Shown: positions 370 to 14,827, counted from the first letter of the stretch. The stretch: DNA of 53,201 nucleotides from an uncultured Candidatus Saccharibacteria bacterium (GCA_964415895.1 CAYQCC010000007.1:1-53201); one strand, 5' to 3'. A program made the numbers and translations. Notes: a model not told the origin generated them from the letters alone.

Positions 370-1395
370 ATGTCCACCCAAACCTATCAATTTCATATTC
401 ATGGAATGCATTGCAATGCGTGCGTTCTTCTGACGGAAAACGAGTTGAAAGATATTCCTAACATCACTTCTGCAAAAGCAAGTCTGAATAATCATTCAGT
501 CGAGGTAGTCGGGGATTTTGGAGACAAAACTCCTGAGCAGATTGCAGAGGAGCTTACGGTTCCATTGAAACCGCTCGGCTATACGGTATCTGTTGAAAAA
601 CAGCAAAGAAAAGGTAACTGGAGCGAGTTCAAAACAGCAGCTCCTATCGCACTTGCATTTGCAGTCCTGTTTGTGTTCCTTCAAAAGATCGGTATGGTAA
701 ATCTGGTGGACGGAGGAAATGTAAACTACAGTACTGCATTCGTCATTGGTATCATTGCTTCGCTCTCCACTTGCATGGCAGTAGTTGGAGGATTACTTCT
801 TTCCATGTCCGCAACCTTTGCAAAGGAAGGTGACAAGATAAAGCCCCAGCTCATGTTCCACGGTGGTCGCCTTGTTTCTTTCTTCATTCTGGGTGGTGCG
901 ATCGGGGCAATCGGATCGGCATTTACTTTGAACACCTCGGCAACGTTCGTCCTTGGAATGGTGATCGGAATCGTGATGCTCATCTTGGGAATCAATCTAC
1001 TTGATGTGTTCCCTTGGGCAAAGCAATTACAGCCATCTATGCCGAAGTTTATCGGAAAGCGTGCTCATGGAGTTTCAAAATACAATCACACCCTTACACC
1101 ACTTTTGGTGGGAGTACTCACATTCTTTCTACCATGTGGATTTACGCAGTCCATGCAGCTCTATACGCTGACCACAGGGAACTTCCTCACAGGTGGACTG
1201 ACCATGCTTGCGTTTGCACTTGGTACGCTCCCCGTACTTGCTATGATTAGTTTCAGTTCGTTTAGTATTCAGAACAATTCAAAAGCAGGAATATTTTTCA
1301 AGACTGCAGGACTCGTCGTTATCCTGTTTGCACTGTTCAATATTATCAACTCATTGGTTGTGCTCGGTCTTATACCGCCAATATTTAATTTCTAG
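370..1395 (+). CDS. Heavy-metal-associated (HMA) domain fused to DsbD_2 / TauE-SafE-like membrane domain
   Basis: N-terminal GMHCNAC metal-binding motif; multi-TM region with STCMAVVGG and FFLPCGFTQ motifs. Confidence 0.85.
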   Translation: MSTQTYQFHIHGMHCNACVLLTENELKDIPNITSAKASLNNHSVEVVGDFGDKTPEQIAEELTVPLKPLGYTVSVEKQQRKGNWSEFKTAAPIALAFAVLFVFLQKIGMVNLVDGGNVNYSTAFVIGIIASLSTCMAVVGGLLLSMSATFAKEGDKIKPQLMFHGGRLVSFFILGGAIGAIGSAFTLNTSATFVLGMVIGIVMLILGINLLDVFPWAKQLQPSMPKFIGKRAHGVSKYNHTLTPLLVGVLTFFLPCGFTQSMQLYTLTTGNFLTGGLTMLAFALGTLPVLAMISFSSFSIQNNSKAGIFFKTAGLVVILFALFNIINSLVVLGLIPPIFNF

Positions 1396-1408: not shown

Positions 1409-1801
1409 ATGAAGATAATAATTATTTCAATCTTGGTCGCACTAATCCTCGTTGGAGGAGCGTTCATGCTGACAAAAGAAAAAAGTGAACCGAAGGCAGA
1501 TACAGCCCCAGTAAATAATGTGTCCATCATAGATGGCAAGCAAATTATTACTATTACTGCCAAAGGAGGTTATAAACCAACTAATAGTGTTGCGAAAGCA
1601 GGTATCTCAACGATTATTCGTTTTGATACTAGGGGAACATTTGATTGTTCATCATCGGTAAACATCCCAAGTATGAACATTTCAAAAATATTACCACAGA
1701 CAGGATCTACAGATATCGATATTGGGATACCGGGGGTAGATGCGCTCCAAGGAACATGTGGAATGGGGATGTATCCATTTTCGATTACGTTCCAAGAATG
1801 A
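1409..1801 (+). CDS. Cupredoxin-domain protein with N-terminal membrane anchor
   Basis: Start moved to ATG 1409 (MKIIIISIL, hydrophobic anchor); C-terminal CGMGM motif and an upstream Cys (FDCSS). Confidence 0.8.
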   Translation: MKIIIISILVALILVGGAFMLTKEKSEPKADTAPVNNVSIIDGKQIITITAKGGYKPTNSVAKAGISTIIRFDTRGTFDCSSSVNIPSMNISKILPQTGSTDIDIGIPGVDALQGTCGMGMYPFSITFQE

Positions 1802-1901
1802 TTAAGACACTTCCGTCAGGAACGACGGTAATTCTTTCATAAAGAAAATATGATGAGATTCCTCGAGTATTAAGGTTCGAACAGCCCTGAACTGGGCGAG
1901 C
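1802..1901 (-). repeat. att-like site B / relic recombinase tail
   Basis: Plus-strand AGGTTCGAAC..CGAGC, 26 nt from TTCGAA to GAGC; minus frame LAQFRAVRTLILEESHH...VS* open for 32 codons and ending 1 nt from the cupredoxin stop. Confidence 0.6.
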
Positions 1902-1906
1902 TAATC

Positions 1907-1937
1907 AAAAAACACCTGTTTATAGGGGTGTTTTTTT
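1907..1937. terminator. Bidirectional terminator-like hairpin after site B
   Basis: AAAAAACACC-TGTTTATAGG-GGTGTTTTTTT. Confidence 0.7.
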
Positions 1938-1960
1938 ATAAAAGGTATATAATAAACTAT

Positions 1961-3226
1961 ATGTTTGCTTACTTAATTCTTGAGATAGTTACAGGTATTA
2001 TTGGCTTATTAGCATTAATTGTATTAATGGTCCATTTGTATAAAAAACCTACCATTCATAAAATTGTAAAACAGCGAGGGATTTATATTCCGATAATATT
2101 ATTTATTGTTGCAGTTTTTGCAGGGTTAATTGCAAACCGTACCTATCCACCAAATTTTGCAATGCCTGTATTTATGCATTCACATGCACCAGGTGGTGTT
2201 CCTGCATCTATTCCTTTTAATAAAATTATAGATTTTTTTATTCATAAAAATCATTTTGAGAAAGTTGCCGATATTTCAACTGACCCAGCATCTGTACCGT
2301 CAACCCCACAGCTTCCAGATGCAGATGGAATTGTCCGCATTCATTTAACTGCAAAGGAAGTTATTTCAGAAATAGCACCAGGAATTTATTTTAATTATTG
2401 GACATATAATGGACAGGTACCTGGTCCGATGTTAAGAGTACGTGAAGGTGATACAGTCGAGTTATCATTAACGAATGATCCATCAAGTTTGCATCACCAT
2501 AATATTGATTTACATGCCGTTACTGGTCCAGGAGGCGGTGCATCAATTACTGATGTAAATCCAGGGGAGACAAAAACATTCAGATGGAAAGCCTTGAATC
2601 CAGGATTGTACGTGTATCATTGTGCAATGCCAAATGTCAGTACACATAATTCACATGGGCAATATGGTTTAATTATGGTTGATCCAAAAGATTCTACTAT
2701 TGGATTATCCAAAGTAGACCATGAGTTTTATATCATGCAGGGTGAATTATATACTGAAGGGCAATTAGGAAAACGTGGGTTGGTTCCATTTGATTCAGAT
2801 GCATTACTTGCAGGAGATCCAAACTATGTAGTGTTTAACGGTAAAATTGAAAGCGCTCCACGAATACATGCAAAGGTTGGTGATACAGTACGTATGTATG
2901 TTGGTAACGGTGGGGTAAATTTAATTTCATCGTTCCATGTAATTGGTGAAATTTTTGACAAAGTATATCCAGAAGCTGCAATAGGTGTCGGGTCATCGGT
3001 ATTTAAAAATGTACAAACAACTGCAGTATTGCCAGGAGGCGCAACAATAGTTGAATTTACAGTTGATGTACCAGGAAAATTTCTATTAGTAGATCATGCG
3101 CTCGCTCGGATGAATAAAGGGGCTTGGGCGGTTCTGGAGGTAACAGGAGATGAACAACCAAGTATTTTTTCTAAAACCAAATCCTTAATGGAGACTGTTC
3201 CTGCAGAAATGGAACATATGCAATAA
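1961..3226 (+). CDS. nirK: Copper-containing nitrite reductase (AniA-like), N-terminally membrane-anchored
   Basis: HNIDLH, YHC, SSFHVIG and VDH motifs supply the type-1/type-2 Cu ligands and catalytic Asp/His; hydrophobic N-terminus; likely start ATG 1961. Confidence 0.9.
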   Translation: MFAYLILEIVTGIIGLLALIVLMVHLYKKPTIHKIVKQRGIYIPIILFIVAVFAGLIANRTYPPNFAMPVFMHSHAPGGVPASIPFNKIIDFFIHKNHFEKVADISTDPASVPSTPQLPDADGIVRIHLTAKEVISEIAPGIYFNYWTYNGQVPGPMLRVREGDTVELSLTNDPSSLHHHNIDLHAVTGPGGGASITDVNPGETKTFRWKALNPGLYVYHCAMPNVSTHNSHGQYGLIMVDPKDSTIGLSKVDHEFYIMQGELYTEGQLGKRGLVPFDSDALLAGDPNYVVFNGKIESAPRIHAKVGDTVRMYVGNGGVNLISSFHVIGEIFDKVYPEAAIGVGSSVFKNVQTTAVLPGGATIVEFTVDVPGKFLLVDHALARMNKGAWAVLEVTGDEQPSIFSKTKSLMETVPAEMEHMQ

Positions 3227-3261
3227 AAGTATGGTGTATTCTAAAATCATTTAGTTACCAT

Positions 3262-3335
3262 AGTTACCTTACATTACCCTTACTAACCTCTGTATATCTC
3301 TCACACAGGTTCGAAGTGTAACCGATAGGCGGAGC
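3262..3335. repeat. att-like site A (putative attL), encodes the last 21 aa of the recombinase
   Basis: Ungapped direct repeat of 12642-12715; 3314-3335 vs 12694-12715 match at 21/22 nt. Confidence 0.85.
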
Positions 3336-5005
3336 ATAGTAGAAAAAACAGACGAAAACTCGTCTGTTTTTTCGTTAGACGATGTAAACAAAGGAGTTTT
3401 ATTAGGTTCGAACTTTGGATTCTCACTCTTCATTGTAATGAATCCATCCAAGAGTGCTTGAACCGATTTTGTATTGATAATACTAATCATTTCATCATTC
3501 CAGACTAGGTTCGAACGAAGTTTAGTAAGAATACTTCTTTTAGAATTAATCTGACCCTTACGCATAACGAATATAAACTCTTCAGCAAGATTAACTATCT
3601 CATTCGCACGAATAGTCCAATCAAGACTCACAGGCTTCTCTGAGGGCTTGTAGCGGGTCTCCAGGTCCAGTAAGTCAGATTTATATTCGTCATCAGTTAT
3701 CATTTTTTCGGCAAGCATCTCTCGGAGCCGTTTCTTTTTTGATTGATAGTCGGTAGCTTCTTTTTGTAGGATTTCTTCCTTGAAGAGGTTTCTATTAACC
3801 TCTTCATCTCTCATTTCCTTAATATGCTTTCTGCACCAGTCTGCAAGTTCTGAAGAAAGAGGTATTTTTTCTCCAACTTCTTTTATTAGGTAATCGGTTA
3901 GTCTTTCATCGCTTACAGATTTGTATTTGAGACCATTCTTCTTTTTCGAATTATTGTAATAATACGAATAATCAAGATACTTAGGGTTTTTCATCTCATC
4001 TATAGGTGTATTACATTGGGGGCAGTGTGTTTTATCCCTATGTGCAAATTTTTTCTTACAATCACAGATGACTTGGTATTTCTTATCAAGACCAATAAAA
4101 TCATTCTCTGGAGAAATTACAAAACCAGAAAATGTAGCCTCGTGTTTCTGAGTCTTCGGGATATTTCTTTTGCCGAGAATCATTTTGATTTCATTATGCT
4201 CATCTTCGGTAATAAGCCTAGGTAAGCTTTTGTCTAGCTCATATCTTTCACCCCCATAAAAGAAGAAGCCTGCATAGGTAGAATCTTTCAAAATTTCATA
4301 TATTCGTGAGGACTGTATTAGTTTGCCTCCAATCTTTTTTCGCTTTACAGTAGTCAATTTAAGCTCTTCTACGGCATACTTATAGAGCTTGCCAGCAGAA
4401 AATTCTTTAGTAAGAAACATCTTTAGAAGAATTTTAACTTTTTCTAACGTTGGCTCATCCACTAGCCATTTTCTATTTCCTTTCTCTTCCGTTTTATCAT
4501 TCAAGAAGCCTAGTGTTGCTACTCCGTGGGGAACACCAATAGAAGCTTTTTTAGCCTGACCTCGTTTTACATTTACTGAAAGGTCTTTAACAAATTGTTT
4601 GCCTTGACCAAACTCTACTGCTAGAACAATCACATTGTCCCAAGGGTAATAAACCTTGTCGTGGGTAATAATAGCTTTTAATACTCCTGAACTCAGGAGG
4701 TCGATAATCTTTCCACCCTCAGTCATATTTCTTGCCAGTCGGTCTGGCTTCCAACAAACTATTGTATCTACCTGACCTTTTTCAATCATCTGTATAAGGC
4801 TGGTAAACCCAGGACGAGCAAATTCTTTCTTTGCAGATTTTGATTCTTCAAATGTCTCAATAAAATCAGGAAGCTTATAAAAATCCACTATTCGCTTCGC
4901 TTCATCTTTTTGAGATTCAATAGAAAGCATCTGCCTATCTTCAGCCTCAGATGACTTTCTGTTGTAACTAGCAGGTTTTAGTTTTGTGAAATCTATATTA
5001 TTCAT
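3269..5005 (-). CDS. Large serine recombinase (resolvase + recombinase + Zn-ribbon/coiled-coil)
   Basis: YNRKSS catalytic Ser motif, DRLARN motif, CDC...CPQC Zn ribbon, coiled-coil region. Confidence 0.92.
   Translation of the reverse strand: MNNIDFTKLKPASYNRKSSEAEDRQMLSIESQKDEAKRIVDFYKLPDFIETFEESKSAKKEFARPGFTSLIQMIEKGQVDTIVCWKPDRLARNMTEGGKIIDLLSSGVLKAIITHDKVYYPWDNVIVLAVEFGQGKQFVKDLSVNVKRGQAKKASIGVPHGVATLGFLNDKTEEKGNRKWLVDEPTLEKVKILLKMFLTKEFSAGKLYKYAVEELKLTTVKRKKIGGKLIQSSRIYEILKDSTYAGFFFYGGERYELDKSLPRLITEDEHNEIKMILGKRNIPKTQKHEATFSGFVISPENDFIGLDKKYQVICDCKKKFAHRDKTHCPQCNTPIDEMKNPKYLDYSYYYNNSKKKNGLKYKSVSDERLTDYLIKEVGEKIPLSSELADWCRKHIKEMRDEEVNRNLFKEEILQKEATDYQSKKKRLREMLAEKMITDDEYKSDLLDLETRYKPSEKPVSLDWTIRANEIVNLAEEFIFVMRKGQINSKRSILTKLRSNLVWNDEMISIINTKSVQALLDGFITMKSENPKFEPNKTPLFTSSNEKTDEFSSVFSTMLRLSVTLRTCVRDIQRLVRVM
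3343..3372. terminator. Terminator-like hairpin inside the recombinase 3' coding region
   Basis: AAAAAACAGACG-AAAACT-CGTCTGTTTTTT, perfect 12-bp stem. Confidence 0.65.
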
Positions 5006-5140
5006 AACAAAAATGAGGTAACGACATTACTTTAGTTGCTACACCAAGCGTGTCATTACCTCGTTTTTATTCACAAAAACACCCATACTAATAATAATTT
5101 CACAGTGTGTTTTTATGGACATATCGCCTGGTGTAGCTCT
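5006..5140 (-). promoter_or_regulatory. Structured leader of the recombinase gene (attenuator-like)
   Basis: Long hairpin ending in CTCATTTTTGTT directly before the ATG; 9-nt complementarity between 5038-5046 and 5129-5137. Confidence 0.45.
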
Positions 5141-5499
5141 TACATTTTATCAAGATAAGGTCTTAATAACAATTAAGCTAACTTGATACAAAACAGTAAA
5201 CTTTATTTTTGGTGATAGGAAGACTCCATAGCCCCCTTACCCCCAAGCTTGGAAGTATTCGTGAAGAAACTTATTTCCGCTGTATCTCGGAGTTTCTTAG
5301 GTCCCACTCTAAGAGCTTTAATCTTAGCTCCCGATATTCCGTCATTCGCCAGGACCACCGTTCACGGCAACGAATGACTTAGAAGAAGTTTACTTCATTT
5401 TCGTATGATGAGGTTTCCTCCATCCTATGAATTAAGCTGGCATCCAAGAGAGGCTCATAGGTTCGCCCACCTTTCTCTCAGGTTTGAGTCATTGCTGAC

Positions 5500-5535
5500 T
5501 CAGAACACTACCCACTGCAATGGGTAGTGTTCTGA
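5500..5535. repeat. Perfect 15-bp inverted repeat
   Basis: TCAGAACACTACCCA-CTGCAA-TGGGTAGTGTTCTGA, immediately downstream of the 55-aa ORF. Confidence 0.85.
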
Positions 5536-5536
5536 A

Positions 5537-5704
5537 TTAATAATGCTTCTGTGGTTTTAGTTTCAAACTTTGGACCATAATTTCAAGAAAAAATTGTCCC
5601 AGATTGTTAATATCCTCGTCGCTTAACTTGCACTCAAAATCTTCACCGTGCGTTTTACGGAGAATTTCTCGAAGTTCAGTTAGTGCTAGTTTGCTGAGGA
5701 CCAT
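5537..5704 (-). CDS. Small 55-aa protein (not in the ORF track)
   Basis: Manual translation MVLSKLALTELREILRKTHGEDFECKLSDEDINNLGQFFLEIMVQSLKLKPQKHY*; co-oriented upstream of the LSR. Confidence 0.65.
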   Translation of the reverse strand: MVLSKLALTELREILRKTHGEDFECKLSDEDINNLGQFFLEIMVQSLKLKPQKHY

Positions 5705-5787
5705 ATTTAGGGGTCCTCTTGTTGCAAAAAAGCAGTCTAGAGGACTGCTTCTATCTTGCTACTTATTCAAATTTACCTCAGCCTGGT

Positions 5788-6627
5788 TTAAGGAATTTGC
5801 TTAATTAATCCAGTTTTAATTTGAGTCTTATTATCCTTGGCTTTTTTAATAATCGACTTAATATAATTTCCTGAATAGGGTTTTCCATCGGGTTTTTTTA
5901 GATTAAACCTGTGGAAAATGTAATTCGCAATTAATTCATCCTTTGCTCTCTCCAAGGCTTTTCTTTTGCCATTAATAGTAAACTTTTCCTTATATTCAGA
6001 TGAAAATCTTAAAGCAAAGGCACTTCTAATTTCTTCAGAAGAGAATGTATCTAGAACTCGAATCCACAATTCAAGCCCGCCAGTATCTGTTTTGGTTGCG
6101 CGTTTTTTTACCTTAGGAACACCTATTCCAATCTCTTTAAATTTTCTCAAAACATCATTTCCTGGAGTTCTTAAGAAATCAAAAATCTGTTGGTTGTCAG
6201 CCCCTGGGATAATTTTCAAATATAGGGCATCAGTGTCTGTTGTATCTTTAGTCCAAAATACATTTCCAAAAGGAATATTTTTATAAGTATCTTCTTGGAT
6301 ATCACCGAAAATAAATAATTCCGAAATCACAGGCTCCCACTCAGGTCGCAGTATTAAGTATTTATATTCAGGGTATTTCTTCGTTAGGGCCTTACGGAAA
6401 CCAATAAAAGCTTTAGACAAGATAGGTTTTTCATTGATAATTTCTTTAACAAAGCTATTTCTCAATACTAAGTTTGTCCAGTCGTATTTATCAATGAGAT
6501 ATTCAAAATCCTGATTATCAATACCGCCAGTTTTTCTGTACTTTACAGCTATTTTCTCGGTCTCTGCACTTGCTATAGTTTCAATGGCAAGATTCTTCCT
6601 ATTGTTGTTTGGTGTAGCATTTCTCAT
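5788..6627 (-). CDS. Hypothetical protein, possible C-terminal DNA-binding helix region
   Basis: 279-aa ORF; basic helical C-terminus; no family recognised. Confidence 0.65.
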   Translation of the reverse strand: MRNATPNNNRKNLAIETIASAETEKIAVKYRKTGGIDNQDFEYLIDKYDWTNLVLRNSFVKEIINEKPILSKAFIGFRKALTKKYPEYKYLILRPEWEPVISELFIFGDIQEDTYKNIPFGNVFWTKDTTDTDALYLKIIPGADNQQIFDFLRTPGNDVLRKFKEIGIGVPKVKKRATKTDTGGLELWIRVLDTFSSEEIRSAFALRFSSEYKEKFTINGKRKALERAKDELIANYIFHRFNLKKPDGKPYSGNYIKSIIKKAKDNKTQIKTGLIKQIP

Positions 6628-6740
6628 CTTCCAATCTTACCAATTTCAAGGAAAAATGATAGAATTAGCATTAACAATTCAATATTGCCGACCTAACCCT
6701 CATCGCTTGCGGTGAGATATGGTCAAATCCGCAAAAGTAT

Positions 6741-6840
6741 AAAGAACCCCTAGTCAGGGTCTGACTTTTGCAGTCCCATCGGGAAACTGGTGGTGTTGCT
6801 CTCTTCGGAGGGCGTACGCTTGGCTAGGGGCTTTTTGTAT
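6741..6840 (+). ncRNA. Putative C4/CI-like antisense RNA (three-way junction)
   Basis: Outer stem CCCCTAGTCA/TGGCTAGGGG, inner hairpin 6771-6789, C(UUCG)G hairpin 6798-6813; ACTTTTGC (6764-6771) is complementary to flanking GCAAAAGT copies. Confidence 0.55.
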
Positions 6841-6888
6841 GGCTAATTCTGGCAAGCGCATTATCAAAAAACCCGCAAAAGTAAAACT

Positions 6889-7110
6889 ATGGAATATTTT
6901 ATACAGGTGGCGATTGTTGCCTTTCTCGTCTGGGAATTTAATAGACGAATTAATAAGCTAGAGCGTCTGGTTTTAAGTCTGGAATTGCGACTTGGCGATA
7001 AGGTAAATAAGCCCAATGATTTTGATAAGTGGGCTGAAGAGCATAAGAAAAAACCTTTTCTATCTAAAGAAGAGTTGGAAAAAGAAAAGCACGAAGCTGG
7101 GGAAATTTAG
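6889..7110 (+). CDS. Small protein with N-terminal TM helix and charged coiled-coil
   Basis: 73 aa; hydrophobic YFIQVAIVAFLVW followed by a charged helix. Confidence 0.65.
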   Translation: MEYFIQVAIVAFLVWEFNRRINKLERLVLSLELRLGDKVNKPNDFDKWAEEHKKKPFLSKEELEKEKHEAGEI

Positions 7111-7505
7111 TCTTGCTGAGAGAGTTTTTCTACCACTCTTCGAGCAATTTCATCGTGATTTAAATCGAAACCAAAAGGAGGAAAATCGTAAAGCTGGGAA
7201 CTATCAAGTCTTGGGTCCGTAGAGAAATCCTTTTTGAATTTTCTCTCAAGAATCCACGCTGTAGCTTTCCAGTCTTTTTCACCAGCTTTCTCAATTTTCT
7301 GTATAAGCTTCTGTTTATATTCAATCACTTTTTGACCCATTTGTTCTGAAAATTCTGAATTTGTACGCTTCCATCCGCACAGGGTATCTTCTGAGATGCC
7401 AGCCAGCATTGAGGCATCTCTTTGAGTCATTCCGTTACCTAGAGCCTCTAGGATTATTGTGACCCTTTCGGGGGTCATTTTGTATGGTTTAGAAGGTTTT
7501 GCCAT
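7107..7505 (-). CDS. Phage terminase small subunit-like HTH protein
   Basis: N-terminal HTH (QRDASMLAGISEDTLCGW) followed by DWKATAWILERKF, a pattern I associate with putative phage TerS proteins. Confidence 0.55.
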   Translation of the reverse strand: MAKPSKPYKMTPERVTIILEALGNGMTQRDASMLAGISEDTLCGWKRTNSEFSEQMGQKVIEYKQKLIQKIEKAGEKDWKATAWILERKFKKDFSTDPRLDSSQLYDFPPFGFDLNHDEIARRVVEKLSQQD

Positions 7506-7584
7506 AGGAAATCATAGGTTGATTTGCTATTGCAGTAGCCTAATTATTATATCAAAAAATGGGTGAAAATGGTAAAATCCACTT

Positions 7585-10500
7585 ATGCACGGGCTACACC
7601 AAGGATACTCTTATCAAGACTTATTATCTGCTTTTTTAATATCAGAAAATCTGCATAAAAAGGATTTTAAAATAGCGATAGAGCAACAAGATTCTATACA
7701 AGACAAGTTTGATGACATTGTAGTTTTTTATGATGGCAGAAAATCTAAATTCCAAGTAAAACACACGTCAGCAAATAATTCAGTTGCAAAGAAAGATTTT
7801 ATAAATAAATCTAGCGACCTTAATTTAGCTGAATTAGCCAAGTCTTTTCTTGATGATAAAAAAACGACTTATATAATTGCCACAAATAGGAATGTTGAAT
7901 CTGACAGTTTCTTTAGCAATCAGGGTGACTCAGGAATATTTTCACTTAAAAATGAATCTTTTCAAATTAGTGGAACTGCTTCTCATAAAAGTTTTACAAA
8001 GAAACTTTTTATTGAATCGTCACTACCTGGAGCTTCCTTTGACCTGAGTAAGCCTGGGAGTCTTGAAAAAGAATTATTGGAATCTTTGCGTACCCAAGTA
8101 GGCATCGGTCAGTATCCAAATAATCAAGTTTCAGAGAGGGATGTTGCTGGTCGTTTAATACTACTAGCTTCTCAATTAAGAAGTACTGGCAAGGGAAAGT
8201 TTTTTGACAGAGATTATATTTTCAAGTATATAAATCTTAATTTTGAATACGGTCATATTGTACAAAATTTCCCATTCATTTCTACAGAGTATAGGCTATA
8301 TAGGACAGAGGTCGTAACAAAAATCCAAGGTCTTTTGTCGGTACATAAATATGCAATTCTTCAAGGTGCGCCTGGTGGTGGAAAATCTCACGTATTTGAT
8401 GACTTGTTTCAAAAGTATAAAGATGAAAAGGTTACAGTTGTCCGTCATTTTTGCTATTTGGAGCCAACAGACCGCCTGGCTCAAGAAAGAATTGTTGTAG
8501 ATGCGATGTATGGTAACTTTCTACATCAACTTGAAAGAAGTGAGCCTAAAATAGCTGAGGAGTTAAAACCCTATTTTTCAGCGACTAAATCAAATCTAGA
8601 AAAGATGCTAATTAAGTTAGCCGAAGCAGGAAAAAAGACTGTTTTGATGGTGGATGGATTAGACCATTTGAATCGAGTAGTTGCTCAGAATAGACTCTCT
8701 GAAGATTTGGTCCAAAGTTTTATTTCTGACCTGTTGGATTTAAAGCTTCCTGAAAATTGTTCCATCTTTATCGCCTCTCAGCCAAGTCTTGAATTGAATC
8801 AAATAATAGAGCATAGAGATGTTGGGGTATACACACTTCTTCCTTGGAGTGAAAAAATGGTTGAGGAATTTTTGAAAAAACATAATGACCATTTGCCGTC
8901 CGAAAGAAAACTTCTCGTAGATAAGGAAATAATAAAGCTTTTATTGCAAAAAACCGAAGGTAATCCTTTGTATCTAACATATGTTCTAAAAGAGGTAATT
9001 AGTTCAAGTAGTGAATCAGATATTCCATCTTTCCTTGAAAAACTACCCCAGCTCAGCAGTGATTTAAATAACTATTATAGATATTTAACAAAAACATCAA
9101 GTGTCTCAGATTTTGCTGTGATGCAAACCTTGGCGTTGCTCGATTTTAGTGTGTCGTCAGAAGAGATAAAAGAAATGTTTCCTCCAATCCAAAAGCCAGT
9201 TATTGAGGCAACAATTAAAAAAATAAAACCAATATTGAAATCAGGGATAGTACACGGAGGTATAAGAATTTATCACGAAAGTTTTCGCCGTTTTATAATT
9301 GAGGAAAGCCATAAGAACAAACAGCAAGATAGTGAGCTATATAAACACATAACAGATTGGCTTGATAAGAAAGGTTTTTATGTCTCCCAAAGAACATACA
9401 GGTATTTAATTCCTTATCTCATTAGGTCGGGCGAAGAAGATAAGGTTTATTCTCTTTTACCAAAAGATTTCATATCGCAAAGTTTGTACTTCTTTCATTC
9501 CCCCGAGAGTATTACTAGCAACCTAAATAGAATTGCGGACTTTGCAGGACTGAAACAAAGATGGGATGTGTACTGTAAGGCTGTTGAATTAAAAAGGGCT
9601 TTACATACTTATACATACGAAAGGGCGGAATCAACAGATGATGTTTATTATCAAGCGATTTTAGACGTGCAGGGCGCGGATATGTTTTGCGAGAGATTAA
9701 TGTTTGATGGAAAGCCAGTTTTTTCTAAACTAGGAGGCATATTAATGTGTCAAAAGGCAGAACATAGTGGAGGAAACCCGCCGTGGGATTTTTATGATGT
9801 TCAAGGAATTTCGATGTCTGTTGGTAGTCCTGCGCAGATTTACCATTTTCAGGAAGTTGAATCAGCTAATTTTCTAAGTTCAATTCGAAAGGCATCAGTT
9901 AAATATGCTATTAGGGTAATGTGGAGATTAATGATGCGAAACAGATTCTTGAATACGGAACAACGTCAAATCAATTGGCTTCTGAACGAATTTGATTTTG
10001 TATTTGGTGTTTCAGCCAACTATAAGGAATTAATTACTCTTCCTATGGCTCGAAAAAAGAAGGCGTGTTTACACTTAGCAGTAGCAAAATACTTGTATAA
10101 GGATGGAAAAAAGAAAGAAGCCAGTCAAATAAGTACAGGTGTATTAAAGACAACAAAAGATAGTAACCAGATTCTTGAAAGCCTAAAACTGGATGGTAAA
10201 ATTGCCAGCCCTGTTTTAATTGGTGATATATCAAAATTAACAGCCTCGATTTTCGGTTTTCAGCATCTATATGACGACAAAGAAGTTCCTGTATTTAAGG
10301 AATGGTATGAGGCTTTACAAATTTTGTCCCACATTAAGCGAGATGAAGTAAAAAATGCAAGAAAATTGATAAATAGAATTGATGGATGGTATCGTGCGTG
10401 GCTCTTGTTTCTTGTCGATTTATCTCTGTTAGAAGCCGAGAATAGTTCGGTTGTAAGGAAAGAAAAAGCTTTCGAGATTATGCTATCTGAACTTGTTAAA

Positions 10501-12234
10501 TATGCAGCCCCTTTCACTGGTACTCCAAGGGCAATGGACCTTTATTCAATTCGGGAATTTTGCACGGATTCTTTTCGTAGAGTATTGATACTTGGAAAGG
10601 ACTTTTCTAATTATGAATTCATATTAAATTCTCTAGGGACAATAAGCTCCGAAACTACTTCTTATCTACAAGGCTCAAGCGATGGTCCGCTAGATGGTGA
10701 AAAATTTAATACACTACTCAAAGAAATTTATTTGTTGTTAGATGAGTCTAAAAGAAAAGTGGTATTGAAAAGATTAAAAGAGAATGTATATAACGGTTTT
10801 GCATCTTCACATTATTATGACTCTTCTTCATTTGAACATTTAAAGTTATCAAGCGTACTTTCTCAAGCGGGAAAAACTAAGGACTCGAAAACAGAGCTCT
10901 TGATGGGCTGTGTCCATCTAGTTGCATACGGACATAGGAAAGATTCTACTCTGTTTGAAATAATCGAACCCATAGGTTTTATTGCTAAGAAAGATTTAGG
11001 CTTTGCAGCTAAAGCTCTATTGAAAACCTATCCCTTGGCTGAGACAGTCTGGAGATATACAGATGGTAGTACTACAAAATGGAGTCTTACTTACTGGATA
11101 GAATCTTTAATTGCCTCAAATGTTAATATGGCTGTTCAGGTAATGACGGAGCTAATAATTAAAGACCCTGGTAGAGATTGGCGGGTAGAGTTAGGCACTG
11201 AGCATCTTTGTAAAAAGTTGGTTGAAGAGAAAGTGTCTATTGCAATAGTGGCAGACCTCTACGAGACCATATTTAGATTAAAGGATACAAGGATTAATGT
11301 TTCAGTGGGATTAGAAATTGCGCAACTCTTAATAGTTTCGGGGAAATATGAACGAGCGCAAAAGATTTTTGACCATATAGCCTATAACCTTTACCACGTT
11401 TCAGTTTTTGAATATGTATCTGAGAAGGAAAATTTCGAAAAGATTCTTTCTTTTGCAAAAAAATACAAATTAAAACTCAAGGACTATCATAAGAAGAATT
11501 TTGAAGCGAATAGGGATAAAACTGCAATGAAAAGTCCGCTTGCCGATATTCCAAAGACTAAAGAGGTGATTGAAAAGTTTAAGTTTAAAGGTCTCGATGC
11601 AGAGGAGATGCAAAGGTTGCTGGATGAAAATCCTAGAGGGCAATTTCTTTATTCTCAAAATGTGCAGAATCTTGGAGAGGCATTGTCTCTAATTGCTAAA
11701 GATAAGCCAGAAAAGAGTCAGAATATTGTACTTTCGTTGGTAAGAACAGGTTTCTATAAGGACCAAGATATTAAAGGATTAATTGCTCTCAGAGAAATCT
11801 TTATCAAAAATGGACAGAAAGAATTGGCTTCATTTGTTTCAATGCTAGGTTTAGTATACGCGCGTGGTAGTGGTGGATGGCACAGCTTGGCTGACAGTCA
11901 ATATAACTATCTAGGTTCTGATGCTTTTAAGTTATCAAAAAAGACAGCGGAAAAGACTCTCTCAAGTGAAATGTCTTATATTTTTTCCAAGGATGGATAT
12001 TTTAGTGGGCCAGTACGACATCTAGTAGAATTTTTCTCACAGGCATCCCAGGTTAGATTGGCTGAAAATATATGGAATGAGGCTTATGATGTTATAAAGT
12101 TTCGATTGCCAACTCCAATAGAACTGGATGAAATGCTTGAAAAAGAAACTCCTAGTCTCACATATAATCTCAGGAAACCAATAAATACCGCCCTTAAAGA
12201 GCTTATAAAAGAGCGACTCAAGATTACTGGTTAG
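7585..12234 (+). CDS. PD-(D/E)xK nuclease-STAND NTPase, Avs/AVAST-like antiphage protein
   Basis: N-terminal GYSYQD..DKFDDIVV..FQVK nuclease motif; Walker A GAPGGGKS, Walker B VLMVDGLDH, STAND GNPLYL; long helical C-terminal region. Confidence 0.8.
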   Translation: MHGLHQGYSYQDLLSAFLISENLHKKDFKIAIEQQDSIQDKFDDIVVFYDGRKSKFQVKHTSANNSVAKKDFINKSSDLNLAELAKSFLDDKKTTYIIATNRNVESDSFFSNQGDSGIFSLKNESFQISGTASHKSFTKKLFIESSLPGASFDLSKPGSLEKELLESLRTQVGIGQYPNNQVSERDVAGRLILLASQLRSTGKGKFFDRDYIFKYINLNFEYGHIVQNFPFISTEYRLYRTEVVTKIQGLLSVHKYAILQGAPGGGKSHVFDDLFQKYKDEKVTVVRHFCYLEPTDRLAQERIVVDAMYGNFLHQLERSEPKIAEELKPYFSATKSNLEKMLIKLAEAGKKTVLMVDGLDHLNRVVAQNRLSEDLVQSFISDLLDLKLPENCSIFIASQPSLELNQIIEHRDVGVYTLLPWSEKMVEEFLKKHNDHLPSERKLLVDKEIIKLLLQKTEGNPLYLTYVLKEVISSSSESDIPSFLEKLPQLSSDLNNYYRYLTKTSSVSDFAVMQTLALLDFSVSSEEIKEMFPPIQKPVIEATIKKIKPILKSGIVHGGIRIYHESFRRFIIEESHKNKQQDSELYKHITDWLDKKGFYVSQRTYRYLIPYLIRSGEEDKVYSLLPKDFISQSLYFFHSPESITSNLNRIADFAGLKQRWDVYCKAVELKRALHTYTYERAESTDDVYYQAILDVQGADMFCERLMFDGKPVFSKLGGILMCQKAEHSGGNPPWDFYDVQGISMSVGSPAQIYHFQEVESANFLSSIRKASVKYAIRVMWRLMMRNRFLNTEQRQINWLLNEFDFVFGVSANYKELITLPMARKKKACLHLAVAKYLYKDGKKKEASQISTGVLKTTKDSNQILESLKLDGKIASPVLIGDISKLTASIFGFQHLYDDKEVPVFKEWYEALQILSHIKRDEVKNARKLINRIDGWYRAWLLFLVDLSLLEAENSSVVRKEKAFEIMLSELVKYAAPFTGTPRAMDLYSIREFCTDSFRRVLILGKDFSNYEFILNSLGTISSETTSYLQGSSDGPLDGEKFNTLLKEIYLLLDESKRKVVLKRLKENVYNGFASSHYYDSSSFEHLKLSSVLSQAGKTKDSKTELLMGCVHLVAYGHRKDSTLFEIIEPIGFIAKKDLGFAAKALLKTYPLAETVWRYTDGSTTKWSLTYWIESLIASNVNMAVQVMTELIIKDPGRDWRVELGTEHLCKKLVEEKVSIAIVADLYETIFRLKDTRINVSVGLEIAQLLIVSGKYERAQKIFDHIAYNLYHVSVFEYVSEKENFEKILSFAKKYKLKLKDYHKKNFEANRDKTAMKSPLADIPKTKEVIEKFKFKGLDAEEMQRLLDENPRGQFLYSQNVQNLGEALSLIAKDKPEKSQNIVLSLVRTGFYKDQDIKGLIALREIFIKNGQKELASFVSMLGLVYARGSGGWHSLADSQYNYLGSDAFKLSKKTAEKTLSSEMSYIFSKDGYFSGPVRHLVEFFSQASQVRLAENIWNEAYDVIKFRLPTPIELDEMLEKETPSLTYNLRKPINTALKELIKERLKITG

Positions 12235-12307
12235 GACTATCTATCGCTAGAGGAGCTTGTTGCTCGTCGATTATTGCTTTTCGAACATCATCCCAGGTGC
12301 GGAGCCA
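12224..12307 (-). repeat. att-like site D / relic recombinase tail
   Basis: TTCGAAC..GGAGC with 26-nt span; minus frame WLRTWDDVRKAIIDEQQAPLAIDSPNQ*. Confidence 0.7.
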
Positions 12308-12311
12308 AGCT

Positions 12312-12342
12312 AAAAGACACCTAATTCACATAGGTGTTTTTT
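12312..12342. terminator. Terminator-like hairpin after site D
   Basis: AAAAGACACCTA-ATTCACA-TAGGTGTTTTTT. Confidence 0.7.
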
Positions 12343-12378
12343 GTTACCGTTGGTAGGCAATCGAACATGTGGTAAAAT

Positions 12379-12624
12379 GTGGATATGAATATGAAATTCA
12401 AATCTCTAATTACTGGTCTTTTAATTTTATCGCCTATGTCCGTCTTTGCGCAAAATCCTGGATTCGGCGCAGAACCAACTCCATTTTTTGAGATGCTATT
12501 TATCAAATCATATTGTACAACACCTTTTGAATGTATACTTAATAATTATATTTTAAATCCATTAATAATATTACCTGTGTTTATAGTCATTGGGGTAGTT
12601 ATTTATAAAAAAATGAAAAAATAA
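12379..12624 (+). CDS. Small membrane protein (signal peptide plus C-terminal TM helix)
   Basis: 81 aa; signal-like N-terminus ending VFA, C-terminal TM with KKMKK tail; upstream TGGTAAAAT extended -10. Confidence 0.65.
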   Translation: MDMNMKFKSLITGLLILSPMSVFAQNPGFGAEPTPFFEMLFIKSYCTTPFECILNNYILNPLIILPVFIVIGVVIYKKMKK

Positions 12625-12641
12625 ATTGAGTTTAATTATTC

Positions 12642-12715
12642 AGTTACCTTATATTACGCTCATCAATCTCTGTATTTCCAATGTATAGATTCTAAGTGTA
12701 ACCGATATGCGGAGC
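12642..12715. repeat. att-like site A' (putative attR), alternative recombinase tail
   Basis: Minus frame LRISVTLRIYTLEIQRLMSVI*, same length as and homologous to the LSR's real tail LRLSVTLRTCVRDIQRLVRVM*. Confidence 0.85.
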
Positions 12716-12794
12716 CCTTGAAAAATGCCTTTATATGGGGTATTTTTTGTTTATCTAAATAGGGTTTAGAACTCAAATCTGTTAAAATGATGCC

Positions 12795-13652
12795 ATGTCT
12801 GAATATCAACCAAAAAATAAGTCCTTTGAGCAATATATACAATTAGGCTACGAGTTTGCTTCTGGGAAAAAATTGTCTGAAAATGAGATGGTTCTTTTAG
12901 AAAAAATATCCGATATAGATACTAGTATTATCAAAATTGATGATATTCTTGACCACGAAGAATACCGAAATAATCGCAAAGCAATTCACCTTATTGATGG
13001 GATAGAAAAGACGATCATAAATGCCAAGCTCGATGAAATTAATGGTGTTCAAGCACTTACTGATTTAATTGAGTTTAGAAAATGCTTTCCTCTTTTCAGT
13101 TACGAAATACTTAAAGTATTTAATAATGACTATATGCGAGGAATATATGAAGGGCAAAAAATTGATAAGGAGTTGGAAGAAATAGAAAATATAACACCAG
13201 AAATGATCCATAAGTATTTTTTAATGACCAAAAAGTTCACGGGAGGTCATATAAGATATGGATTAGAAATCGGGCAACTATTAGGCGGTAAAATCCCTGA
13301 TAAAAGCGTTAGTGAGATTGCCGAAAATTTAGGCATTAATCGACAGATTGTAGATGATTTCGAAGATTATTTTAAAGCCCATCATTATCCATTCGGAGAT
13401 ATTAAAAGGGGTGCAAAAAGACTTCCTGAGATATTATTTACCTTGAAAGGTGGTAGTAGAGAAACTGTTCTAGAGCTTATTACGAAGAAAGATTTTTCAG
13501 GAATAGTAAAACTTGTTTTAAATGAGGAGGTTAGAAAATCGCTCTATGATTATTGTAAAACGAATATAGAGCAATGCGAGCAAATTACAACTGATTTTGA
13601 TTGGGCAAAGATTTCAGTTGATATTGAACAAATACTAAGAAAAGAAATTTAA
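12795..13652 (+). CDS. Polyprenyl synthetase-family protein (divergent)
   Basis: First Asp-rich motif DDILD..R, GQKID, second motif QIVDDFED. Confidence 0.75.
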   Translation: MSEYQPKNKSFEQYIQLGYEFASGKKLSENEMVLLEKISDIDTSIIKIDDILDHEEYRNNRKAIHLIDGIEKTIINAKLDEINGVQALTDLIEFRKCFPLFSYEILKVFNNDYMRGIYEGQKIDKELEEIENITPEMIHKYFLMTKKFTGGHIRYGLEIGQLLGGKIPDKSVSEIAENLGINRQIVDDFEDYFKAHHYPFGDIKRGAKRLPEILFTLKGGSRETVLELITKKDFSGIVKLVLNEEVRKSLYDYCKTNIEQCEQITTDFDWAKISVDIEQILRKEI

Positions 13653-13731
13653 ATTTAAAATTTCACCTAATTCGAGCTCGCTTTTAATCTGAACCCAGTT
13701 AAGGATTCTGAACTTGTCCACGAGAGGGAGT
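13635..13731 (-). repeat. att-like site C / relic recombinase tail
   Basis: TTCTGAAC..GGAGT with 26-nt span; minus frame LPLVDKFRILNWVQIKSELE... open for 31 codons; 16-bp hairpin follows at 13750-13786. Confidence 0.65.
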
Positions 13732-13853
13732 CAACCATTGACATATGATAAAAGGACAGTATTATGCTAAATAATATTGTTCTTTTGCTTTGCGTTTAAT
13801 TGGTTTTCAGAGAAGATCCTGTCTTTTGTGATAGCCAATTAAATACTTACAAA

Positions 13854-14153
13854 ATGGGAACGATTAATATTGAAAATAATGAAACTGATTTGGAAACTTT
13901 TGAATCATTGTGCAAAGAATTCAGAATATACATCGATGAACTAAAAACAAAATGGAAGGTTAATAATAGACCGCCTCAGTTTAAAGATGTGTATGAAATT
14001 TTACGTCCAGATGAGAAAGCGCAAATAGAAAGTCATATCAACAATTGGGACAGATACATAACACCCATTGCAGAAGAGTGGTGGAAACAACGTGGTTATG
14101 GAGTCAATTGGCCAGATGATAATTCAAAGCCAGTAGGATATTATAAGCTTTAA
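13854..14153 (+). CDS. Hypothetical protein (about 99 aa)
   Basis: Likely start ATG 13854; no family recognised. Confidence 0.65.
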   Translation: MGTINIENNETDLETFESLCKEFRIYIDELKTKWKVNNRPPQFKDVYEILRPDEKAQIESHINNWDRYITPIAEEWWKQRGYGVNWPDDNSKPVGYYKL

Positions 14154-14202
14154 TTGAATACGGTTACCAAATTAGTAAAAGACTGTTTTTTAAATAGTCT
14201 TT

Positions 14203-14247
14203 TCATTTACTCAAAATTTTCGATCGAACATTTCCCATGTTTGGAGC
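14203..14247 (-). repeat. att-like site E (degenerate, 1-nt deletion)
   Basis: ATCGAAC..GGAGC with 25-nt span; restoring 1 nt gives LQTWE(N)VRSKILSK*, resembling site D; imperfect hairpin follows at 14254-14282. Confidence 0.55.
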
Positions 14248-14345
14248 TAAATTTAAAACACCTATTACACAGAGATGTTTTAGTTATTCTTTATTTCTTA
14301 AAAATATTAAGATATAAATGGTATTTATTATTTTAACTTTTAACT

Positions 14346-14747
14346 ATGTTTCAAATAACAATTATGTGGATCGTGTCTGTTCTGCAGATCTTAATAGCCC
14401 TTGGATTAATTAATGTATGGATTATTCGATCTGGACGTGCGACAAAATACCGCGGCGCTGGAGCTCAAAACATGAAACAGGAATTTAGTGCGTATGGATT
14501 ACCGGTCTGGACAATGTATGTGGTGGGATTTTTAAAGATGGTAATTGCACTAGTTATGGTTTTGGTGTTGTTCGTACCTTATGTAATGATTCCGTTTGGC
14601 ATTGCTGCTTTTGCGCTACTTGTTATATTAATGCTTGGTGCAATCACCATGCATGTTAAAGTTAAAGATCCATTAGTAAAGGTTCTTCCTGCTATAAGCA
14701 TGTTACTGATGTCGGTACTGGCTTTATGTCTTGTATTGTTAGTATAA
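14346..14747 (+). CDS. DoxX-family membrane protein
   Basis: Four TM helices; F..YGLP.W...VG..K and GAITMH.KVKD motifs. Confidence 0.8.
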   Translation: MFQITIMWIVSVLQILIALGLINVWIIRSGRATKYRGAGAQNMKQEFSAYGLPVWTMYVVGFLKMVIALVMVLVLFVPYVMIPFGIAAFALLVILMLGAITMHVKVKDPLVKVLPAISMLLMSVLALCLVLLV

Positions 14748-14827
14748 AGGATAAAAACACCTAATTTATAAGTGTTTTTTTGTAACGAGTCATTGTATTT
14801 ATAAAAGAGATATGAGATAATTTACTC

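Follow-up and report, generated by a model that had tools for sequence, protein, structure and literature searches.

The genes which follow a copper cluster in an uncultured Candidatus Saccharibacteria bacterium are arranged as a tandem series of small units, and one of these units carries a gene for a large serine recombinase (LSR). The whole stretch of DNA which we have analyzed, called the window here, is one strand of 53,201 nt (GCA_964415895.1 CAYQCC010000007.1:1-53201). Six related sites, A to F, separate the units, in this order: copper cluster, A, nirK, B, LSR element, C, 81-aa gene, D, polyprenyl-synthase-like gene, E, 117-aa gene, F, DoxX. Comparison with homologous loci identifies the sites as attP-type half-sites, or P arms, of a large LSR family of Parcubacteria. 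Taken as a whole, it is probable that the P arms of this Parcubacteria-wide family delimit a stack of units which are moved by recombinases, in a way similar to integrons. Public contigs and loci compared with the window are designated L001-L118; X1-X12 are sequencing runs, searched as Logan contigs. Positions are collected in Table 1.

Six co-oriented sites had been described in a previous examination of this DNA, made without any database (the sequence-only reading). Five of them, A to E, are exact matches to the pattern TTCKRA-N16-GAGY (1876-1901, 3310-3335, 12280-12305, 12690-12715 and 13706-13731). These are the only exact matches in the window and all of them are in the + strand, while 0.60 matches are expected and none of 100 shuffled sequences reaches five. 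The motif thus stands well above chance. Site F (14223-14247, ATCGAAC...GGAGC) is only a one-mismatch copy in which a 1-nt deletion leaves a spacer of 15 nt, and its 25-nt pattern by itself shows no excess over chance. We have kept it, read as a decayed copy of a C-class arm, because of its position and its likeness to C (about 77%). No match to the motif, or to a position-weight matrix (PWM) for the arms, is found in the window past F.

The arrangement around the sites is also regular. All six lie 46-84 nt past the stop codon of a + strand gene, as the sequence-only reading had placed them: cupredoxin (stop at 1801), a multicopper NirK-type oxidase (3226), a NACHT/Avs1b-like STAND gene (12234), the 81-aa gene (12624), the polyprenyl-synthase-like gene (13652) and the 117/99-aa gene (14153). 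A hairpin formed by an A-tract, a stem and a T-tract had been reported after every site. It begins 5-7 nt past GAGC at A-D (z = -3.5 to -7.3); at E it is farther away, 18 nt past GAGT (z = -3.6), and at F it is weak (z = -1.5). Recombinase tails had been correctly read in the minus strand: LAQFRAVRT (A), LRLSVTLRT (B, which is the real end of the LSR), LRTWDDVRK (C), LRISVTLRI (D) and LPLVDKFRI (E), with F frameshifted. These five tails are open for 32, 21, 26, 21 and 31 codons, respectively. The departure from random positions on the same strand is mild (product P about 0.014), and we have discarded the open tails as strong evidence.

The six sites had been taken for copies of the att site of the LSR next to them. 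Sequence comparison divides them instead in at least four classes, A, B and D, C and F, and E, and each class recurs as a tail or a far-end arm in other LSR lineages. B and D form a 74-nt direct repeat with 77% identity. The first 30 nt of site A, approximately, resemble the arm which forms the tail of the L057 LSR (33 of 61 nt are identical overall), and the L057 arm likewise follows a cupredoxin cluster. Runs X1 and X2 contain an arm 90% identical to A, which we call A', preceded by another sequence. The tail of E, LPLVDKFRILNW..IKSEL, matches the tail class of the LSR homologues P0024, P0039 and P0042, and its core is also found in contigs with other flanks.

The recombinase itself belongs to a family with 599 homologues, nearly all of them in metagenome bins of Parcubacteria/Paceibacterota. 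Its Resolvase domain is clear (PF00239, 2.3e-15); the match to the Recombinase domain (PF07508) is weak, 19.5 bits, under the cut-off, and is present in the precomputed annotation of many homologues. Residues Y14, R16, S18, S19 and Q25, which include the catalytic R16 and S18, are invariant in 18 homologues, as are C314, C316, C328 and C331 in the zinc-ribbon region. When 120 homologues with 55-88% identity are compared, conservation extends through ...EKTxxFSPVFSTML, where the proteins separate in discrete tail classes. The commonest tail, RG-stop, runs into the antisense of a tRNA gene. Other classes are RTWDDVRK (as in C and F), PLVDKFRT.NW..IKSDL (E), GLNSVRTALIEE-like (A) and RLSVTLRT (B and D). 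This comparison places the crossover of the family in the recombinase codons with which conservation ends (Met-Leu, GAGCAT on the + strand). The sequence-only reading had already placed it in the 3' end of the LSR, and the behavior of more than 100 homologues, conserved to ...FSTML and then divided, bears this out.

ARAGORN finds a tRNA-Asn(GTT) gene on the opposite strand in about 35 of these loci, with its 3' end within the Leu codon of the LSR. This position identifies the 3' end of tRNA-Asn as the canonical attB of the family. It corrects the sequence-only reading, in which the LSR integrates at the six sites and excises between them. Judging from the sequences which both partners share, strand exchange takes place within GCGGAGC, probably at AG/GA.

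The spacing within the sites indicates on which side of this reaction they belong. In 31 tRNA-type tails, TCGAAC starts 12 nt after CTC. In ten P-type tails and in sites A-E, it starts after 16-17 nt. The zinc-ribbon-domain (ZD) motif of serine integrases is 5 bp nearer the center in attB than in attP (Rutherford et al. 2013, PMC3783163), and by this rule the sites in the window are classified as attP-type. Independent support for this identity comes from elements which are integrated at tRNA-Asn: they have the same type of arm at their far end, 7-10.5 kb upstream of the LSR (L008, L012, L015, L017, L023, L025, L065 and L109), and this junction must be attP-derived. The commonest far-end arm in such relatives is the LRTWDDVR (C) class. 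In 830 kb around LSR homologues, the strict pattern GCTC-N16-TTCGAA is found 23 times on the LSR strand and twice on the other; the PWM gives 58 and 4, with a matrix partly trained on these hits. The pattern of the C-class arm has no match in IMG/VR viral contigs. According to these comparisons, a site would consist of a P arm of about 33 nt (GGTTCGAA, 16 nt, GAG), the crossover between GAG and C, 3-7 nt, and then a terminator hairpin and/or a -35 box.

A relative from another sample, L111, provides the most direct comparison. We have reached it through its nirK homologue (94% aa identity). It contains the same 341-aa gene and cupredoxin (80% nt identity), followed by an E-like arm, a 191-aa gene, a B arm, nirK, a B arm, a 271-aa gene (Exo_endo_phos), a B arm and a 138-aa gene, without any LSR. 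The B-class arm before nirK has a core identical to that of B in the window. Positions 2284-3710 of L111 are 92.4% identical to 1909-3335 of the window over 1,427 nt, and the homology stops exactly at 3335. The hairpin-promoter module which follows the post-nirK B arm is 88% identical to 12299-12374 of the window. The junction at 3650-3790 of L111 is formed by window B-left and window C-right. Therefore the 8,970-bp LSR element is a precise insertion immediately after GAGC, or has been precisely lost in L111. Units have been gained, lost and replaced between these relatives, and the breakpoints coincide exactly with the junctions. The sequence-only reading had proposed this comparison as a check of its cassette array, and the outcome is favorable to it. 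That reading had also supposed that this LSR built the array by repeated integration and excision. We find no evidence for this: the LSR element looks like one unit inserted into an array which was already there.

The far end of the LSR element agrees with this delimitation. The closest complete relative, L109, has an LSR with 83% identity, is integrated at tRNA-Asn and carries a Type III restriction-modification (RM) system and Abi as cargo. Its far-end arm (905-946) is 90.5% identical to site C over 42 nt, from which we identify C, and not D, as the native arm of the LSR in the window, and 3336-12305 as its element. The final 21 codons of the LSR (RLSVTLRTCVRDIQRLVRVM) are encoded by arm B of the adjoining nirK cassette; its present tail thus belongs to the neighboring unit. 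B and D flank the place which holds both the LSR element and the 81-aa unit. We have considered them as attL and attR of a 9,380-bp element and rejected this possibility, given that L109 ends in a C-class arm and L111 joins B-left to C-right. The LSR element contains only one recombinase gene.

Further junctions are found in metagenomes. Wastewater runs X1-X4 contain the window at about 100%, and in their Logan contigs the assembly breaks at the cores of the sites, each of which is joined to several partners. The B core, of 30 nt, shows 5-7 times the depth of its flanks. Its right-hand partners are at least six, among them the LSR body, a hairpin-promoter module (Y) and a minor partner. In X1 the LSR element appears as a separate contig of 9,270 nt with a depth of 39.9, compared with 50-56 for its flanks. 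The depths in this run fit the assembled join: nirK-B, 45.4, is approximately the sum of the LSR, 39.9, and about 5 for a minor form. A contig of 2,231 nt in X3 (depth 5.5 vs 53) extends from the B core to the C-right module. Since it lies between the same two junctions, it represents a different 2.2-kb insert at the position of the LSR element. In runs X1-X3 the B core has another major context, with TAATCAAAAAACACCTGTTTTATATGGGTGTTTTTTGATATTGACTTAAT as its right partner and a depth of 52-62, which is as abundant as the genome itself. This context indicates another array with identical B arms, either in this genome or in a co-resident one.

Runs from other studies show the units in other combinations. 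X8, X9 and X12 contain the nirK unit without the LSR. nirK is joined in X9 to another arm, of the LRQLDMFRT class, so that the left neighbors of this cassette are different in L111 and X9; in both cases the joint is at GAGC. The unoccupied site is found in X10: the B core with GAGC is followed by T and by the sequence which starts at 12308. The 81-aa, polyprenyl-synthase-like and 117-aa genes are absent from the runs of other studies. The 5' module 12303-12375 is present in these runs without the 81-aa gene, at a depth of 17-122x (binned contig depth), and it heads other genes there.

Similar arrays are found elsewhere in the family. Two to five co-oriented arms, spaced 0.09-1.6 kb apart, are located past the far end of LSR elements in L008, L012, L014/48/49, L015, L023 and L043. 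Genes which fit between two arms run toward the arm, with a hairpin or -35 box 3-7 nt past GAGC. L043 mirrors the layout of the window: the tail of its LSR is homologous to an arm 7.6 kb upstream, and arms of other classes come next. L040 contains two LSR elements in tandem, an LSR of the family with a P-type tail and, 8 kb further on, a second LSR which reads into tRNA-Asn. Insertion at the 3' end of tRNA-Asn and tandem stacks bounded by a repeated att sequence are thus features of the family, although the window itself has no tRNA. We have also observed in L040 that the P-type tail arm at 11671 (+) recurs as an identical inverted copy at 18002 (-), just upstream of the second LSR gene, which has 500 aa.

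The 3' end of the LSR genes has a structure of its own. A 13-14-bp hairpin is present in the antisense of their last 45 nt, approximately, in 36 of 38 distinct homologues (mean z -5.0), and its inner stem shows compensatory changes across homologues (L002-L109 loci). The copy in the window, at 3342-3373, has a dG of -19 kcal/mol and a z of -7.3. This hairpin is probably a terminator which the element provides for the convergent gene, tRNA-Asn in the canonical state. The conserved peptide EKTxxFSxVFS is encoded by the hairpin, 6 nt beyond the 3' end of tRNA-Asn. Since this peptide is encoded within a covarying hairpin, protein sequence and RNA structure are constrained together.

Two other observations concern the surroundings of this end. 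The LSRs at L012 (11674-11715) and L030 (8228-8275) enter the same truncated 3' fragment of tRNA-Asn, broken at the anticodon loop, which may be the displaced 3' half left by another element. Contigs L007, L011, L014, L015, L023, L025, L027 and L028 terminate 0-120 nt from the 3' end of the LSR, a signature of an assembly break at a junction with multiple contexts.

The sequence-only reading had proposed that recombinase att sequences delimit one-gene cassettes with their own promoters, and the composition of the units supports it. Promoter-like sites lie directly past the crossover. In the 81-aa cassette, the hairpin has a z of -4.8 and the promoter is a TG-extended TAAAAT; that of the 117/99-aa cassette is the best match of the region (11/12). 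A box which resembles a T-arm, GGTAGG(Y)AATCGAAC(C), is located between the hairpin and the -10 box in the window (12342-12378) and in L111 (1575-1615 and 3745-3785). It is part of the 5' module common to many unrelated cassettes, and is similar to the T-arm of tRNA-Asn, a B-type arm. Candidate roles for this box are a promoter element, a second recombinase-binding site or a relic.

Table 1. Features of the array and of the neighboring genes in the window
Feature	Position	Strand	Evidence or content
HMA/DsbD-like gene, 341 aa, copper cluster	370-1395		
Cupredoxin gene, last of copper cluster, left neighbor of array	1409-1801	+	Pfam Cupredoxin_1
Site A, tail and P arm	1802-1901, core 1876-1901 (TTCGAACAGCCCTGAACTGGGCGAGC)	+	exact motif
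nirK cassette, 1,434 bp	1902-3335	+	hairpin 1907-1937, promoter, NirK-type multicopper oxidase 1961-3226, tail and arm B
Site B, tail and P arm of nirK cassette	3262-3335, core 3306-3335	+	exact motif
LSR element, 8,970 bp, unit within array	3336-12305	.	L111 junction; backbone common to L109 and L001
LSR, 578 aa	3269-5005	-	Pfam Resolvase and Recombinase
Hairpin, 14 bp, A-tract/T-tract, within LSR coding sequence	3342-3373		peptide EKTDEFSSVFS; 6 nt from GAGC
Backbone protein, 279 aa	5788-6627	-	58% identical homologue in tRNA-Asn-integrated L001
LOOT RNA (RF03000)	6690-6813	+	Rfam 51.1 bits vs gathering score 46.4
HTH backbone protein, 132 aa	7107-7505	-	Pfam HTH_28 (weak); 71% identical in L001; L109 DNA homology
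NACHT/STAND NTPase, Avs1b-like, 1,549 aa	7585-12234	+	Pfam NACHT 5.9e-08; PADLOC Avs1b 4.4e-20
Site C, P arm of LSR element	12264-12305, core 12272-12305	+	exact motif, L109 match
81-aa cassette, 410 bp	12306-12715	+	hairpin 12312-12341, extended -10 promoter 12350-12378, membrane gene 12379-12624, arm D
Site D, tail and arm of 81-aa cassette	12642-12715	+	exact motif
Polyprenyl-synthase-like cassette, 1,016 bp	12716-13731	+	hairpin, 285-aa gene 12795-13652, arm E; Pfam polyprenyl_synt 8e-17
Site E, arm of polyprenyl-synthase-like cassette	core 13695-13731	+	GAGT variant
117/99-aa cassette, 516 bp	13732-14247	+	promoter TTGACA-16-TATTAT 13738-13765, gene 13800/13854-14153, arm F
Site F, arm of 117/99-aa cassette	14223-14247	+	position, C-class likeness
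DoxX-like membrane gene, right neighbor	14346-14747	+	Pfam DoxX_2; no arm after

The LSR element shares its backbone with L109: the HTH gene, a 92%-identical region which contains the LOOT RNA (window 6674-6884, L109 3382-3595), and the LSR with its upstream non-coding leader. The stretch of about 210 nt around the LOOT RNA is more conserved with respect to L109 than the adjoining protein genes. The 279-aa backbone protein has no Pfam or PADLOC match, and the DNA comparison with L109 gives no match over its gene; a 285-aa gene of similar size is found just upstream of the LSR in L109 and L030. Its domain matches identify the Avs1b-like STAND gene as the defence cargo of the element, and relatives have Type III RM and Abi in its place. 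About 780 nt between the start of the LSR and the 279-aa gene (5006-5790) contain no long open reading frame. They include a 28-nt palindrome at 5490-5545 and are 78-79% identical to L109 (9119-9625 and onward). This stretch may be a conserved leader, a regulatory region or an origin region.

As for the other neighbors, copper clusters homologous to the one in the window adjoin LSRs in L057 and L030 and the array in L111. nirK homologues at 77-81% identity are found in ordinary chromosomal contexts, as seen in gene maps, so nirK is a cassette only in this lineage. A loose motif scan of L114, L116 and L118 gives scattered weak matches, which we have judged to be due to chance.

These data suggest the following mechanism. 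In the canonical reaction of the family, a P arm and the final conserved codons of the LSR gene make up attP, which recombines with the 3' end of tRNA-Asn. The Leu codon of the LSR supplies the terminal GAGC of the tRNA, and the hairpin in the C-terminal codons probably a new terminator. The tail of the protein is therefore rewritten at every move. Each unit in the window begins with its own hairpin and promoter and ends with a P arm. Units would exist transiently as circles, in which the joint between the P arm and the hairpin or promoter arm mimics attP, and LSRs, acting in cis or in trans, would insert and delete them at the crossover between GAG and C. The right-hand arm would be generic, as the 3' hairpin of the LSR resembles the hairpin arms of the cassettes; every product junction would therefore stay usable and units could stack. 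The tandem in L040 and the insertion of the LSR element at a joint between the B arm and a hairpin suggest, at the sequence level, that product junctions are re-used. The window and L111 have the same order of copper cluster and nirK and are different inside, which argues for the use of internal sites of the array. Two sites with P-type left arms would then recombine, something unusual for a serine integrase. Such an array would be integron-like with a serine recombinase, double-stranded one-sided sites and self-promoted cassettes. Catalysis by the LSRs on the sites of the array, circular cassette intermediates and current activity are what we infer from this pattern.

A more ambitious proposal goes beyond this. 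It would regard the system as a serine-recombinase counterpart of integrons in Patescibacteria, in which single-gene cassettes with their own promoter and terminator and a one-sided attP-type arm of about 33 nt are captured, stacked, deleted and exchanged, at internal sites and at tRNA-Asn, by recombination between P sites. The LSRs would ride on small defence elements, and the tail rewritten in each move might be a record or a switch of the state of the enzyme. Taken jointly, all this is tentative, and we are not inclined to bet on it.

Several facts weigh against an array moved by recombinases. For the LSR element to enter between a P-type arm and a hairpin arm, two sites with P-type left arms would have to recombine, which is forbidden to canonical serine integrases. 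The arm after the cupredoxin is A in the window (1802-1901) and E-like in L111 (1440-1537), although the two loci are 80% identical in the genes before it. Hence an arm is not always passed on together with the gene in front of it, and exchange between GAG and C alone does not predict this difference. ARAGORN finds no tRNA in the 53-kb window, so the array is not visibly anchored at a canonical attB. The sequence-only reading had proposed to look for circular junctions; the assembled contigs contain none, either for a cassette or for the LSR element. These contigs provide all our read-level evidence, drop rare variants and give no phasing across the 30-nt repeat. Neither an empty site nor a circle junction of the LSR element is reported in X1-X5, a result which is not evidence of absence, given the loss of rare variants. 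A joint from 3331 to 1898, which goes back 1434 with an overlap of GAGC, could be taken for a nirK circle. We have rejected it as proof: L111 has a B arm before nirK. Finally, the conserved modules at the junctions are long (arms of 74-100 nt, 5' modules of about 80 nt), and homologous recombination could explain part of the shuffling.

This last possibility may be extended to the whole array: homologous recombination between junction modules would shuffle the genes, while the LSR would move only its own 9-kb element and the other arms would be mere repeats. The modules are long enough for this, as the B/D repeat indicates; the B arms of L111 have 54-92 nt with 90-96% identity to B, and its 5' modules 76-81 nt with 83-88%. 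Moreover, nirK lies between two B-class arms in L111, and the different arms after the cupredoxin would find an explanation which exchange between GAG and C alone does not offer. Even so, we consider it quite unlikely. The same 5' end of nirK is joined to an A, a B or an LRQLDMFRT arm, and similarity passes from one module to the other no more than a few bases from GAGC. Contigs in which both flanks are different have the B, C and E cores in common, and identity stops at GAG(C). The common orientation of the arms and their strand bias with respect to LSR genes (23 vs 2) also point to a site-specific system.

The arms might instead be passive scars of complete LSR elements which arrived one after another at a single hotspot and decayed by deletion, in which case the cassettes would be leftover cargo and would never have been mobile units. 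Full elements do accumulate in tandem (L040), different arm classes imply visits by different LSR lineages, and F is visibly decayed. The hairpins of the cassettes are at the same distance from GAGC as the 3'-end hairpin of the LSR, and could be its remains. This explanation is unlikely in view of the uniformly small size of the units, which range from about 0.4 to 1.6 kb in the window and, in the six other arrays, from 0.09 to 1.6 kb. We have noticed no obvious LSR remnant between the arms, in the course of an analysis which included no dedicated search. The hairpin or promoter is 3-7 nt from GAGC in each unit (18 nt at E), so random deletions would need nearly identical endpoints. Three different arms precede the same nirK unit, whose homology ends at the junctions, and many unrelated genes have the same 5' module and the same B-class arm. 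We give almost no credit to the idea that the sites are a chance or generic intergenic motif, ordinary terminator-proximal sequence or tRNA fragments unrelated to the recombinase. TTCGAA is indeed the T-loop word of tRNAs, and AT-rich terminators are common in this genome, also without an arm (for example, 14752-14781). On the other hand, the shuffled sequences never reach five matches. Genuine LSR genes have the site sequences as their C-terminal tails, and integrated elements have them at their far-end junctions. These findings refute the idea. Relics of tRNA genes have been rejected as well: the window lacks any tRNA detected by ARAGORN, and the spacing is 5 nt too long for a T-arm and acceptor end. 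Movement of the units by recombinases of the family accounts better for these facts.

The array may be compared with several known systems. Integrons use the IntI tyrosine recombinase, an attI site and arrays of attC sites, which are imperfect palindromes recombined as folded single strands. Their cassettes are mostly promoterless and are expressed from a common Pc promoter. As in integrons, the units described here are small, mostly with a single gene, oriented in one direction and ended by a recombination site, and relatives differ by whole units. Sites are alike within a host lineage (B-class arms here, species-specific attC there), and defence genes are part of the cargo. The only recombinase in the region, however, is a serine recombinase, not a tyrosine recombinase of the IntI type. 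Unlike attC, the arms are linear sequences of about 33 nt which also encode recombinase tails, with the terminator hairpins on the other side of the crossover. The units have their own promoters and terminators, without a common Pc, and the recombinase itself is on a mobile unit in the array.

Phage serine integrases (Listeria A118/LI, phiC31, Bxb1) have the same resolvase, recombinase and zinc-ribbon domains and the same 5-bp shift between attB and attP. They recombine one attP x attB pair, and other pairings are blocked without a directionality factor. Here, the sequences suggest that product junctions are re-used, and one insertion would involve two sites with P-type left arms.

Staphylococcal cassette chromosome elements (SCC, SCCmec) are moved by the large serine recombinases CcrAB or CcrC. 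Their target is rlmH, their units range from several kb to tens of kb, and direct repeats of the target have about 15-18 bp. Composite islands and pseudo-SCC elements resemble the arrays in that LSRs insert at the 3' end of one conserved gene and form tandem stacks bounded by att repeats. These stacks also contain units without a recombinase, thought to be moved in trans in SCC, and a usable site is formed again on integration. The differences are that most units here consist of one gene, measure about 0.4-1.6 kb and have promoters of their own, that the canonical target is tRNA-Asn, that the repeated site is an attP-type half-site of about 33 nt in several classes, and that the crossover lies inside the reading frame of the recombinase.

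The ssrA islands of Dehalococcoides are similar in other respects. Their recombinase, DsiB, is a CcrB-like serine recombinase, and several islands are found in tandem downstream of the tmRNA gene (McMurdie et al. 2011, PMC3146451). The islands insert in the T-loop/3' end and are bounded by a repeat which copies 20 bp of the target; their integration module has six genes (PMC3146451). Some islands lack this module and have been proposed to be cis-mobilizable by accretion (PMC3146451). Tandem units at a tRNA-like gene, insertion in the T-loop/3' end and repeats which mark the boundaries are common to both systems. The ssrA islands are multi-gene; cassettes on the scale of single genes, a crossover within the recombinase gene and alternative tails are not reported in the paper. 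SCC composite islands and ssrA islands are the closest known systems, and both correspond to tandem accretion of multi-gene islands. Our searches of full-text literature found no description of serine-recombinase cassette arrays, or of these LSR elements in bacteria of the candidate phyla radiation (CPR). What sets this array apart is that its units are self-promoted single genes, that the attP-type site is one-sided and comes in several classes, that the crossover falls within the recombinase gene, whose tails are swapped, and that a recombinase element lies inside the array.

Serine integrases are leading tools for the insertion of large DNA. If the interpretation proposed here is true, this would be a useful enzyme family, with one informative half-site of about 33 nt, reusable product sites and tolerance of several arm classes. 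The window is a clean test case: it has a recombinase element in an array, a relative with the unoccupied site, and wastewater communities which have been sampled repeatedly. Integrons are the only well-understood natural platform for the capture and stacking of single genes, so a serine analogue, if confirmed, would be a solution which has evolved twice. It would also explain how accessory and anti-phage genes (NirK, copper handling, Avs-like STAND, Type III RM) are exchanged in the streamlined genomes of ultra-small CPR bacteria.

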